Of a stretch of DNA of 64,000 nucleotides, positions 55,152-59,837 are shown in pieces. The position numbers and the translations under genes were made by a program. Each line of letters starts with the position of its first letter. Position 1 is the stretch's first letter. Location: NCBI GenBank assembly GCA_010093705.1, contig MU006096.1:456004-520003 (forward strand), in the 5' to 3' direction. Below the pieces are notes generated by a model. It did no database searches. It saw nothing but the letters and a program-made list of their open reading frames with translations, and was not told the origin of the DNA. The stretch comes from Patellaria atrata CBS 101060. Its lineage: Eukaryota.

Positions 55152-56385
55152 TTAGAGTGGTGGATGATAATGACCAGATGCGGTTACCGCTCCAACGTGA
55201 TTTGTATCCTCCGTAAAGTTTGCGTATGCGGGCCCTAAATAGAAGCAAAGATCATTAGTAAAAGAGATTGATACGTAGGACTGAAAATACAGCGCCTGGG
55301 TCTTATTAACTTATAATTCTACTTACCAAATATTGGATGTACAACTGCACCAGGTTCATATGGATCAACCATCCGCTGTATTGCCCATTTGTTGATGGAA
55401 TCCCAATCTACGCACTCATGTTCGTACTCCATATCACCAACCGGGACAGGATGATTGTAATCCCATTTGTAAACAAGGGGACTGGTATCCCCATGGCACA
55501 TTGCTGCTTTACGCAAGAAGTCAAGACAGTGCACTATGAACGACTTAGAGGCCATGGCTAGAATGCAGCATAATGGAGCTCACTGTTATGAAGATGTAGC
55601 AGATACTCCTCTTCCTCTGTCATGTTATGGAAATAATGGTCCTTGTTGAGAGACCTGTAAAGTCTTTTCTACAAAAGTTTGTTAAATTAGGTCAAATTGG
55701 ACGCACTATTTGATCCTACTCACTATGCAATGAAGGTCATGATATACACTGATGCCGCCCATGAGAGTACCATCTGGTAAAACTACCGGGTCCCCAGACA
55801 CTCCACCGAAATGGGCTACTTCTTCTTTAGTAAACCATGAGTTGGCGGCTAGCAAAGTCAGTCAAACAGGAGGGCTATACGTTGAAGATTTTGTTTACGT
55901 TTTAAGATTTGTTCCCATGCCTCGTCCAGTTCTGCTGATGGCTTCCCAAATAGTTCCGGTGCAAAACCGCCGTTTTGTATATGAAAACGAGATTTACCGT
56001 AGACAATTGACTGTCGAGCAGGGGCTTCAAACTAGAGATCAGCACGAAAGAACTAACTTTATAGAAAGGTTGGACGTTGAGGTGGTTGTTGTTGATGAAA
56101 GGGCGACTAACTCCAAACAGTATTTGGTCCGTGCGCATATCTCTTTTTCAGGGAGAGCCAAAACGAGACGAAGACGACAGTGTAGAGAGCAACAACTCCA
56201 AGATGGAACCACATCACTCTGGCCCTGGTTTTCTTCCCCTTTTGGGAGACAAAACTCTCCCACACTAGAGGAGTACTCTTGTGAGTTCCATCATCTGTTG
56301 ATGCTTCTGAGCCTGACCGTAACAGTCCCTTTTCTTCTTCATAATGCTGCTCCGATACGTCAATTGATGCACTTCTGGATTCCAT
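55152..56385 (-). CDS. DUF3328/UstYa-family oxidase A, multi-exon
   Basis: N-terminal TM helix, PSAELDEAWEQI, GISVYHDLHCI, spliced HN|MHCLDFLRKAAMCHGDT and HECVDWDSINKW; both HxxHC motifs present. Confidence 0.9.
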
Positions 56386-57144
56386 TGCTGTCAAGACTAA
56401 GGTTAAAATTTAGAAGAGGGTTAAGGTTTTGCTTTGATTTGAAAGAAAAGAGTATCATCAAGAGACCGCAGAAAGAGATGCAATTGCGCTCACCTACTTC
56501 TCTGATAGCCGTTCTTCCGATAATTATTACCCGCTGCAATGCTAGCCCCTCCTGTGTCCGTTTCCTTTGCTCATGTATTTCCATGTCAAGCGATTACGAT
56601 ATCTTCCTTAGTCTTCTGACCTGCAGCTGAAGTATACTGTAACCACGTTAGTAGCGTGTTATGGACCCTGGAAAACCTCTATCTGAACACTGAATATATT
56701 ACTTCTTCGCCGATATCCTCCTGTATCATTTGTACTCTGCAGAAAATGCTACGATGTTACCTTCTATTTTCCGTTAGAACCCCTTTCCTGCTTCATGTCT
56801 GACAACTGTCCGTTCATCTAGTTCTAAGACAGCAACTACGCACTGGCCCCTAACAGTCAAGCTGTACGACGAGACATTAGGAGTAATGCGGTGTTACGAA
56901 CAGACTAGAGTCACTGGATTGACCAATAGCTCGAGCATATCATAGCCGAACACAATTCACACCGACCATATTGCTACATCTCTATGAGCCTAATTCGGCG
57001 AGAAATGGCAACATAGAGCGGAAACTGTTCGAGGAACCATGCTCCTTGTCATAGACTGTCCGAAATTTTTCTCTTTCGGAGAATGCAGACGCTCTTACCT
57101 GATGATCTGTCAAGCAAGTGACACCCTCTTCGTCTTCGTATGGT

Positions 57145-57152
57145 TATATAAA
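57145..57152 (+). promoter_or_regulatory. TATA box of the RiPP precursor gene
   Basis: TATATAAA about 70 nt upstream of the ATG at 57224. Confidence 0.6.
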
Positions 57153-57223
57153 GGGCTGGCCTTCCGCATATTTCAAGTCTCGTAGCTAGCTCTCCATTAC
57201 TACAGATTCTCAATCCATAAAAT

Positions 57224-57839
57224 ATGCGTTTCGCAACTCGTCTTCTGGCTCTAGGCCTTGCTGCCTATGGTACACTCGCTGGTCCGTAATATTGAGAGTC
57301 TATCATATGATCGGATAGCTTACAATTCATTAGCTCCAGTTCCAGCCACACAGGACACAGTCACTAAACGTGCCCTGATCCAACGTAGCGCTGATGCCAC
57401 TGAATCCGACAGTGCTTGGTGGGTTTACATCCCAGACCTTAACTATGACGAAGCAAACGATATCGCGGCACGCGCCGATTCCCTTAAGATCAAGCGGGAT
57501 CCGGCACAGGACAGTGATAGTGCGTGGTGGGTGTACATCCCAAACGTCAACTATGAGGAAGCAACCGATGTTGTAGCACGTGACGATTCCCTTCAGGTCA
57601 AGCGGGATTCGGCGCAGGACAGTGATAGTGCGTGGTGGGTGTATATCCCAGATCTCAACTATGACGAAGCCGTTCAGGTCAAGCGTGATACGACAAAAGA
57701 CGCCGACAGCGCTTGGACAGTCGTTATCCCACTCCGCACGTATGACACGCGAGACTCTCTCCGCAACAAGCGAGATCCATCAAAGGATAGCGACGCTGCC
57801 TGGACGGTCACTATACCTATCGGTAATTACGATAACTAG
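57224..57839 (+). CDS. Dikaritin-type RiPP precursor (Kex2-processed repeat protein), ~187 aa, five core repeats
   Basis: Exon 1 MRFATRLLALGLAAYGTLA is a signal peptide. Intron ~57282-57333 (alternative donor at 57270). Exon 2 has KR-separated repeats with cores WWVYIPDLNY, WWVYIPNVNY, WWVYIPDLNY, WTVVIPLRTY and WTVTIPIGNY. Confidence 0.9.
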
Positions 57840-58837
57840 GACTTAGTCGCCTCAAGTTCAGGGTCTTGTCAGATGCAAGCATGAACAGATCGCAACTGAT
57901 CAATTACCCTATTAATCGACGATCATGAGGTTCCGGAACTCAAAGGTCTACTGGATTTTATGGATGCAGAATGAATGATATATCGGGATCAGAATCGGGT
58001 GCTATTCCTAGTCTTTAGAACTGATATCCGCTCCTTGAAACAGTTCTACTAGCTAGTATGATAGGAAAATGGGAATCTAGAATGCATTTTCCATGTTAAT
58101 TTTCGGTGCATATCGATCTGTGAAAACCACCGTCCATATAAGCTTAATAGCTGCACGCTTGAAAGCTTAGGCGATGTGACAAAGTACTGTAAGTAAACGG
58201 TCCGTTAGATGCGTCTCGCTTGACCCTGATTCCCGAAGCCCGTCTTCATATTGTCCGAGATCGTAGTGCTCCCGCACGGGTATGCTCAACACCCTGGTTT
58301 GCATTGCAGGAAGAAAAGAACTAGTCCGTCAGGCAAATACGCTGAGCTGTTGTTAGAGCTGTACATTTCTTTTAGAAACATCTTCAACTTTCAGATATGA
58401 GGGTGGAATTGTACCAAGATTCAAATCAAGCTCTTGCTTTTTGAAAATTTCTCTCTATCACTCCGCTCATATCATTAGTACTGCTCTATTATATATCACC
58501 CGTGGGCGGTTAAACTAGAGGCACACCGGTCGAACTGTGTTTCTTCCGTTTCACATTTGTTGTATCTTGCGGTTCATGATAGGAAAACCTAGATTTTCCC
58601 AATTGCGTCTTGAACTCAAAACTCACGTATCAAATGCCAATTCTAGTATGTGATCCAATGTCGACCGCTTAGGAGCTCGTTCGGTGAATATAATCCTTGG
58701 GCATTCGGAATCACTAAGAGCCGAAAGGATGCACATACATCCGGTACATAACCGTGATGAAATTATACACAATCTCATGCAGCAGACAAGAACCTCTTAT
58801 CCTGAATAATATCTCTACGGCAATTCATCCGAATCCG

Positions 58838-59837
58838 CTACGGAGGAGAATCCCAAATCTTCTCGCCCGGCAGAGGATGTAAGGCATACCGACTGGGCAG
58901 ATCGGGGATCTGTCTCCGTACAGACCACTCCCTTATGCTGTCAAAATTTCGACAAGAGTGCAAAGTATTGAAGTTGGGATAGGGGTCAGCATGGCCTTTC
59001 ACCCACCGATAGGGGATGATTGTAACATCTGCATCGCACATGAGCTTTTGGCGAAGCATGTCCGCACAGTGATCGAAATGATGATGTGTCGTGCGGTCTG
59101 AATCGGTGAACTCGGCAGATCGGTTCTTATAGTACTCGTGGTTCCAGATACTCGACTTGCGCATGAAGTTCTATTCTGGTTAGATGATAGAATTGATATT
59201 GATTGAGGGTGTGGTTCTGTACCAGACAGTGTAGATGATGAATCACTTCGAGAGAGCCCATGTATCCTCCTCCCGCCTCTTCTGGTACTTTTGTGGTCTC
59301 AATATCGTAAGGAATCGCTGCGTATTCTTCCTCTGTGATCATTGTCACTCGGACTTTGGACGTTGTGAGAATCTCAATGAACTGACTATATTTCTTGAGT
59401 AAACTTACACCCTTCAAGCTCTTGCCATGCCTCATTCAACTCTTCTCTTAGTTCACCTCGGAAGGGGGAATCTAAAATGATAGACCCATTGAACCTTACA
59501 TCATGATAACTTGTGTCTATCTCAGCAATAGCAGGTGCTGTTTCGATCGTCAAAAGAAGCTCCTATAGAGTGCATTCATGATAAACTCACAATATGTGGA
59601 ATGCATCTCGAAACATAATCTTTTCAAATCTTGACCGAACCATGGACCGATAACTGATCCAACAAGCAATGAGATGATTCCTGTTGCGGCACACAGTAAA
59701 AAGCACCCCATCCAGGACGGTCCATGTTGAAAAGATCTCTGAGATTTTGATGAGAGTGATGCCTCTTGAATTGAAAATTGCCCATTTTCATCTTCTGTTA
59801 AAGAAACCTTTTGGTAGTTGCAAACAGCCATTAGCAT
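58838..59837 (-). CDS. DUF3328/UstYa-family oxidase B, multi-exon
   Basis: TM helix, SPFRGE...LNEAWQEL, GYMGSLEVIHHLHCL, HFDHCADMLRQKLMCDAD and PNFNTLHSCRNFDSIREW. Confidence 0.92.

Follow-up and report, generated by a model that had tools for sequence, protein, structure and literature searches.

In the 64-kb window analysed here, by which we mean the whole stretch of DNA taken from contig MU006096.1 of Patellaria atrata CBS 101060, a saprobic dothideomycete of the order Patellariales, three neighbouring genes at 55152..59837 probably form a minimal dikaritin-type (ustiloxin-type, ust-RiPS) ribosomal peptide locus. A gene for a repeat-containing precursor is adjoined on each side, in both cases within ~1 kb, by a gene for a DUF3328 (UstYa-family) oxidase. 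This arrangement agrees with the initial annotation, which had described a secreted precursor with five KR-delimited repeats lying divergent to one DUF3328 gene and convergent with the other: (i) DUF3328-A and the precursor gene are divergent with start codons 838 bp apart, (ii) the precursor gene and DUF3328-B are convergent with stop codons 998 bp apart, and (iii) all three reading frames are open across their introns, the borders of which are all GT..AG. The locus comprises:

55152..59837: three-gene locus of Patellaria atrata CBS 101060, with DUF3328-A on the minus, the precursor on the plus and DUF3328-B on the minus strand
55152..56385, minus strand: DUF3328-A, UstYa-family oxidase gene, 299 aa, six-exon model obtained by in-frame GT..AG joining, with proposed exons 56385-56112, 56024-55899, 55848-55724, 55668-55584, 55533-55327 and 55234-55152
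56386..57223, no strand: divergent intergenic region of 838 bp between DUF3328-A and the precursor gene, read from the sequence
57224-57839, plus strand: precursor gene, 187 aa, with exon 1 at 57224-57281, intron at 57282-57333, exon 2 at 57334-57839 and stop codon at 57837-57839
58838..59837, minus strand: DUF3328-B, UstYa-family oxidase gene, 279 aa plus stop, with exons 59837-59591, 59537-59409, 59353-59223 and 59170-58838

The call of a cluster for a dikaritin-type RiPP (ribosomally synthesized peptide with post-translational modifications) is supported by the sequence criteria set out in PMC9632046, for dikaritin clusters of Venturia, and in PMC7329392: the locus has a signal-peptide-like N-terminus, repeats delimited by Kex2 sites and DUF3328 genes close by. 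Repeats in the sense of PMC9632046 are tandem, perfect or imperfect, at least 10 aa long and separated by kexin (KR) sites.

The precursor gene is interrupted by a single 52-nt intron with a GTCCGT donor 58 bases after the ATG at 57224 and a TAG acceptor at 57333. Splicing yields a coding sequence of 564 nt for 187 aa with no internal stop, and it cleanly joins a signal-peptide-like N-terminus to the KR-repeat protein; the ATG-to-stop list of open reading frames (ORFs) shows the precursor only as a 190-aa frame that starts at an internal ATG. The ATG has an A at -3 and is preceded, at a distance of 72 nt, by a TATATAAA element (57145-57152), and the region 56386..57223 is presumably the shared promoter of DUF3328-A and the precursor gene. 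The protein begins with MRFATR, which contains two Arg residues, followed by a 12-residue hydrophobic stretch with a mean Kyte-Doolittle value of 1.8 and by small residues before A-P; by eye and from hydropathy, we read this N-terminus as a predicted secretion signal. KR pairs at residues 31-32, 73-74, 109-110, 136-137 and 165-166 separate a leader and five units of the precursor from one another; the units measure 42, 36, 27, 29 and 21 residues, and the last of them forms the C-terminus:

57372..57497, plus strand: repeat unit 1, residues 33-74, core AWWVYIPDLNYD, ending in KR
57498..57605, plus strand: repeat unit 2, residues 75-110, core AWWVYIPNVNYE, ending in KR
57606..57686, plus strand: repeat unit 3, residues 111-137, core AWWVYIPDLNYD, ending in KR
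57687..57773, plus strand: repeat unit 4, residues 138-166, core AWTVVIPLRTYD, ending in KR
57774..57836, plus strand: repeat unit 5, residues 167-187, core AWTVTIPIGNYD, ending at the C-terminus

All five units share the string D-x-A-W-x-V-x-I-P-x3-Y, which is followed by D in four units and by E in one. AWWVYIP occurs in three of the five units and AWTV[V/T]IP in the remaining two; in either form, the second residue after the invariant Trp is an invariant Val, and an invariant Ile-Pro begins two residues beyond this Val. An 8-residue acidic spacer precedes the invariant string, and a variable follower, often with a DSL-x-x-KR end, comes after it. Without KR, the linear peptides of units 1-5 have calculated monoisotopic masses of 4466.167, 3866.755, 2885.267, 3108.548 and 2278.039 Da, and for the 12-mer cores the values are 1553.719, 1552.735, 1432.771 and 1348.666 Da. 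At the DNA level the array is seen as a tandem repeat at 57411-57670 (TRF period 108, 2.4 copies, 85% matches), the only one with a score of at least 80 in the window. The synonymous codons used for the invariant residues change from unit to unit (Ala: GCT, GCG and GCC; Val: GTT, GTG and GTC; Ile: ATC and ATA; Pro: CCA and CCT; Tyr: TAT and TAC), and the codon of the invariant D varies likewise. Within the core of 11 codons, nine of the ten unit pairs have at least as many synonymous as non-synonymous differences, the exception being units 1 and 4 (2 versus 4); for the core D.D.AWxVxIP, units 2 and 5 differ by seven synonymous and three non-synonymous codons. This pattern points to selection on the peptide rather than to recent copying, and argues for purifying selection on the invariant core residues. 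The precursor matches no Pfam family.

Both flanking genes encode members of PF11807 (DUF3328/UstYa). PF11807 was tested on DUF3328-B as a whole protein and on the open pieces of DUF3328-A singly, and the check that had been proposed gave matches well above the cut-off of 25 bits for both: DUF3328-B scores 186.3 bits (E 9.4e-55; profile positions 6-217 of 220) and exon 5 of DUF3328-A, its largest, scores 62.3 bits on its own (7.8e-17). For DUF3328-A, three of the six open pieces match in collinear order (profile 51-94, 120-137 and 166-219), the matches of exons 2 and 3 being weak at 13.8 and 14.5 bits. The two HxxHC motifs ascribed to each enzyme were recovered in both:

55727..55741, minus strand: HDLHC, first HxxHC motif of DUF3328-A, residues 170-174
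55526..55590, minus strand: HNMHC, second HxxHC motif of DUF3328-A, residues 202-206, split by the 50-nt intron 55583-55534 and present only in the spliced reading
59226-59240, minus strand: HHLHC, first HxxHC motif of DUF3328-B, residue 164
59066-59080, minus strand: HFDHC, second HxxHC motif of DUF3328-B, residue 200

Spliced DUF3328-A and DUF3328-B are 27% identical over 223 aa (E 2e-22), and in this alignment both HxxHC motifs and two further Cys residues (216 and 244 in DUF3328-A; 214 and 242 in DUF3328-B) are in register; on sequence comparison, the two are diverged paralogues. The motifs of a pair are spaced by 32 residues in DUF3328-A and by 36 in DUF3328-B, and hydropathy reveals one strongly hydrophobic N-terminal 19-mer in each protein (residues 57-75 in DUF3328-A and 45-63 in DUF3328-B; Kyte-Doolittle values 1.98 and 2.39).

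The introns of the DUF3328-A model (87, 50, 55, 50 and 92 nt) were chosen as GT..AG pairs that join frames without stops. The stop codon of the 299-aa model ends with base 55152. In an alternative model the last intron is not used and translation ends at the stop codon 55319-55321 after 274 aa, the GTAAGT donor of this intron overlapping that stop codon; the UstYa domain is complete in both. DUF3328-A is absent from the public protein collection as searched with its largest exon, for which none of six candidates scored, whereas the same kind of search did recover DUF3328-B. The latter corresponds to the public hypothetical protein M501DRAFT_975262 of Patellaria atrata CBS 101060 (279 aa; P0001): its last exon is 100% identical to this protein at full coverage, and the four exons map exactly onto the window.

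For DUF3328-B, the word-indexed search returned one other relative, a 501-aa protein from an ENA source (P0002) that is 57% identical across the C-terminal half of the exon used as query. This protein resembles the product of a fungal DUF3328 gene whose introns were translated as coding sequence by a gene caller of the prokaryotic kind, and its PF11807 match spans just the last 56 residues of the domain. One metagenome locus (L001) was rejected as a relative of DUF3328-B, being a bacterial ORF of the metallo-beta-lactamase fold that shares HFDHCADM by chance. Among solved structures nothing scored below E 0.74, and a single-sequence AlphaFold2 model of DUF3328-B was unusable and not used (mean pLDDT 36.7).

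Combining the architecture of the precursor and the oxidases with what has been published on related systems, we suggest how the three proteins would work together. In the dikaritin route as described in PMC9233826 and PMC7329392, a repeat protein travels to the Golgi, is cut by kexin at dibasic sites and trimmed by peptidases, and the side chains are cross-linked by DUF3328 enzymes. By analogy, the 187-aa precursor would enter the endoplasmic reticulum by means of its N-terminal signal peptide, and kexin in the Golgi would cut after the five KR pairs to release five peptides of 21-40 residues. DUF3328-A and DUF3328-B would each be tethered by one N-terminal helix, with their HxxHC(x)nHxxHC domains facing the lumen, where they would use O2 at a binuclear copper centre to oxidise C-H bonds of the invariant residues. 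One or two side-chain cross-links, i.e. macrocycles, would be the likeliest result, possibly together with hydroxylation or dehydrogenation; each paralogue may make one link, or both may act as a pair like UstYa and UstYb. Housekeeping exopeptidases would trim the flanks and the products would be secreted. For kexin processing, luminal topology, copper/O2 chemistry and cyclisation, this model of the P. atrata system draws on the family.

The biochemical reference for the two enzymes is CctR, a DUF3328 hydroxylase of the cyclochlorotine pathway, which is a non-ribosomal peptide synthetase (NRPS) pathway. As reported in PMC12435403, CctR forms disulfide-linked homodimers anchored in the membrane; each monomer binds two Cu through HxxHC(x)nHxxHC, and the enzyme requires O2 and a reductant and loses all activity when His or Cys residues are mutated. 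Its family architecture, with a disordered N-terminus, one membrane helix and a luminal domain that has HxxHC(x)nHxxHC and extra Cys residues (PMC12435403), would be that of DUF3328-A and DUF3328-B too, a likeness of described architecture and not of compared sequences. Given that they carry every sequence feature of the CctR architecture, a location in the secretory pathway with luminal catalytic domains would be expected. [quoted passage not shown]

As to which residues would be linked, PMC7329392 describes the cross-linked pair in YAIG, YVIG and YVIP as Tyr and the Ile two residues on. Because W-x-V in the P. atrata units mirrors this Tyr-x-Ile pair of the ustiloxins and phomopsins, the likeliest chemistry, in our own inference, would be a Trp-to-Val link and/or links with Ile or the distal Tyr; in other words, we infer that Trp would take the place of Tyr in cross-linking. 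A more far-reaching proposal is that A-W-x-V-x-I-P...Y defines a new dikaritin subclass in which Trp and not Tyr is cross-linked by two DUF3328 copper enzymes without a tyrosinase, for example through an indole link to the beta-carbon of the Val two residues on and possibly through a further ring that involves Ile or the distal Tyr. We regard this proposal as rather doubtful. Plant BURP-domain copper cyclases make Trp cross-links, and a Trp-linked subclass, if true, would be the fungal counterpart of these. Among the matches listed in a search of the newer literature on DUF3328 RiPPs, judged by title and start of the abstract, there was no Trp-linked dikaritin.

Several observations weigh against a functional dikaritin-type locus. 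No RNA run with the locus was found; the stretch is contained in two runs, both of which are joint-free DNA contigs from a single sample. The public protein collection lacks both the precursor and DUF3328-A, perhaps because no RNA evidence for these genes was available to the annotators. Searches of the called-protein and metagenome collections returned no relatives of the precursor. The units are long, 21-40 aa without KR, so that the core boundaries are tentative. Finally, the Pfam scan of the flanks, which covered 50 of the 51 ORFs of at least 45 aa in 52.0-55.15 kb and 59.85-64.0 kb, the 51st having been scanned already, revealed no transporter, peptidase, tyrosinase, methyltransferase or regulator beside the trio. 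In the window as a whole, 108 of the 206 stop-to-stop ORFs of at least 75 aa were scanned; the other 98, picked by eye, were mostly shorter, overlapped by longer ones, or ORFs of the locus, which were scanned separately. These scans found no P450, NRPS, polyketide synthase (PKS), SET or peptidase S8 domain among the ORFs scanned.

Alternatively, the precursor could be an ordinary Kex2 repeat protein that gives rise to linear, unmodified secreted peptides while the DUF3328 pair serves another substrate, for instance one encoded beyond the window. According to the census in PMC7329392, 78% of catalogued Kex2 repeat proteins are without a DUF3328 partner and are presumed to be linear; NRPS and polyketide pathways employ DUF3328 enzymes as well, as noted in PMC12048977, and the window stops 4 kb past DUF3328-B. 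However, the two immediate neighbours of the precursor gene carry the only PF11807 matches among the ORFs scanned in the 64 kb, no NRPS or PKS accompanies them there, and the 4 kb past DUF3328-B are without a recognisable domain, so that we consider separate roles for precursor and oxidases improbable. The trio could also be a silent or decaying relic in which the frames are still open and expression or function is lost. In favor of such a relic, the public protein set lacks two of the three genes, no relatives were found, and the locus lies past Tc5/pogo-type remnants (49-52 kb) in a lower-GC, gene-poor stretch. On the other hand, all three frames are intact across GT..AG introns, both HxxHC pairs and the conserved Cys residues are retained, synonymous differences exceed non-synonymous ones in the core of most unit pairs, and PMC12048977 and PMC9632046 both describe annotation pipelines as often missing repeat precursors; decay of the locus thus has a slim chance of being the right explanation.

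The combination of a signal peptide and KR repeats is also the build of alpha-factor-like mating pheromone precursors, and a language-model search for look-alikes ranks an MF_alpha cluster third with a score of 0.79, which can be taken as a lead only. The precursor has no match to the Pfam families MF_alpha or MF_alpha_N at E up to 1, and its units appear to be without the Cys-containing pheromone motif of filamentous ascomycetes. Moreover, a DUF3328 neighbour is absent for 227 of 227 alpha-factor-type and for 98.6% of 216 pheromone-type repeat proteins in the census of PMC7329392, and the two DUF3328 neighbours here run counter to that pattern. A pheromone precursor is therefore extremely unlikely, and we favor the dikaritin-type locus over these other explanations.

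With respect to novelty, the core sequence is new relative to the protein, metagenome and literature collections searched, which comprised no unannotated fungal genomes, and the class itself has already been described. The suggestion that the cores match none of the known ones has held up: no identical or similar characterised precursor emerged from protein, metagenome, literature or KEP-catalogue searches. A word-indexed protein search scored none of 125 candidates for the precursor, 90 metagenome stretches fit a pattern with none encoding a relative, and the top score in a language-model atlas was 0.80, again a lead only. An HMMER scan of 1.84 billion representatives returned one match (E 4.2e-4), a 1429-aa repeat protein with GWTVYLD-type units, which we rejected as a chance match because it looks bacterial. 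No related paper was found with the core strings, the sole match being unrelated, and none was found that links Patellaria atrata with DUF3328. The supplementary text files of the KEP catalogue, of which the long ones are possibly incomplete, mention 'Patellaria' nowhere and contain none of the eight core strings that we looked for. Given that the protein collections hold only called genes and that the precursor itself is absent from them, similar fungal precursors that are not annotated would be missed by such searches.

The class is very common. The census of 1461 fungal genomes in PMC7329392 gives 1758 of 7878 Kex2 repeat proteins with a DUF3328 neighbour, a mean of 1.7 DUF3328 genes per such precursor and a peak of the counts at the adjacent gene position; by its figures, 2560 precursors are without any homologue and 20.5% of the DUF3328-linked ones contain Trp. 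Nine such clusters are reported for Venturia inaequalis alone (PMC9632046). A stand-alone, Trp-containing precursor flanked by DUF3328 genes is thus an expected kind of find.

The surroundings of the locus were surveyed with the same Pfam scans. The genes and remnants nearest to it on the low-coordinate side are:

49018-49686, minus strand: transposase remnant 1, DDE_1 (Pfam)
50381-51982, plus strand: transposase remnant 2, HTH_Tnp_Tc5, HTH_psq and DDE_1 (Pfam)
54188-54795, plus strand: gene for a secreted-looking, Cys-containing protein of ~181 aa, exons 54188-54697 and 54760-54795

Positions 1-48600 are densely packed with housekeeping genes, none of which is obviously tied to the peptide locus. 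The window starts in the N-terminal fragment of an Argonaute gene, and the block also holds genes for Suf/Rna14-like, UNC-50, IF-2, glutamine-synthetase-like, exportin-5, GH5, GH43, RNase T2, PNP oxidase, AAA ATPase, Snf7, PITH and LSM proteins as well as a Zn2Cys6 factor; the Zn2Cys6 factor nearest to the trio is ~36 kb off, amid housekeeping genes. Two Tc5/pogo-type transposase remnants at 49018-51982, broken across adjacent frames, mark the boundary between this block and the lower-GC, gene-poor stretch with the peptide locus. The gene at 54188-54795, convergent with DUF3328-A, has a 62-nt intron (GTACGT..TAG); its product matches no Pfam family, and its language-model neighbours are unnamed Ascomycota clusters of ~161-168 aa with scores of 0.92-0.94. 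A 295-aa open frame antisense to DUF3328-A (55743-56630, plus strand) has no Pfam match and is probably a by-product of the opposite coding strand. On the other side, the ~4 kb at 59900-64000 have 41% GC and yielded no family among 28 ORFs of at least 45 aa (Pfam, E up to 0.05), and a RIP signature is not marked at 60-64 kb (TpA/ApT ~1.0).

Pairs of repeat precursors and DUF3328 genes have been catalogued by the thousands, most of them without a known product, and the locus described here opens no new class. If active, the trio would be among the smallest dikaritin-type systems, with one precursor, two copper-type DUF3328 enzymes and no other tailoring gene in view, and it would lend itself to studying the activity of two DUF3328 paralogues on their own and to finding out whether Trp is their target. 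Moreover, public annotation missed the precursor and one of the two enzymes, which indicates that censuses of annotated proteins undercount such loci. For specialists the locus is not surprising; its use lies in serving as a minimal test system and in illustrating under-annotation.

The modules of the P. atrata locus can be compared with those of characterised dikaritins. Like the locus described here, the ustiloxin (UstA/UstYa/UstYb) and phomopsin (PhomA/PhomYa-e) systems combine a signal-peptide Kex2-repeat precursor with at least two DUF3328 paralogues. They cross-link an aromatic residue with a beta-branched aliphatic residue two positions on, as described in PMC7329392, and W-x-V and I-P in the P. 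atrata units recall this layout with Trp at the aligned position of the Tyr. Their units are shorter, with 13-14-mers in UstA (PMC10540207) versus 21-40 aa in P. atrata, and both systems need a tyrosinase and many more genes, the ustiloxin B cluster of A. flavus comprising 17 (PMC10540207, PMC7329392). We do not assign the P. atrata locus to the ustiloxin/phomopsin subtype because its units have A-W-x-V-x-I-P where that subtype has Tyr-x-Ile, and because the ORFs scanned in the window gave no match to a tyrosinase domain.

Closest in size are the asperipin-2a and epichloecyclin loci. The asperipin cluster reportedly also has a reductase and a transporter, counterparts of which were not found in the P. 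atrata flanks scanned. As described in PMC7329392 and PMC9233826, the asperipin-2a cluster of Aspergillus flavus is likewise small, its macrocycles are thought to be formed by DUF3328 without a tyrosinase, and its precursor has a signal peptide, KR repeats and aromatic-rich cores, as in P. atrata. It has one DUF3328 gene (PMC7329392), whereas P. atrata has two diverged paralogues, and its links start from internal Tyr side chains (PMC9233826), whereas the invariant core aromatic in P. atrata is Trp, with a distal Tyr. In the case of epichloecyclin, no search that we made detected sequence similarity between the precursor and that of P. atrata. We do not assign the P. atrata locus to this type because its core is not directly after KR and no SET methyltransferase or cluster kexin was found among the ORFs scanned: the epichloecyclin core follows KR directly (PMC10540207), whereas an 8-residue acidic spacer intervenes in P. 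atrata. In other respects the likeness is close. According to PMC10540207, the gigA, gigB, gigC and kexB cluster of Epichloe festucae is compact, its precursor has a few imperfect ~27-aa repeats cut at (L)xKR, only part of each unit becomes product while the remainder is a follower peptide, and a single-family DUF3328 cyclase acts on a core with an invariant Tyr and an I/L-P pair, as the core of the P. atrata units also has.

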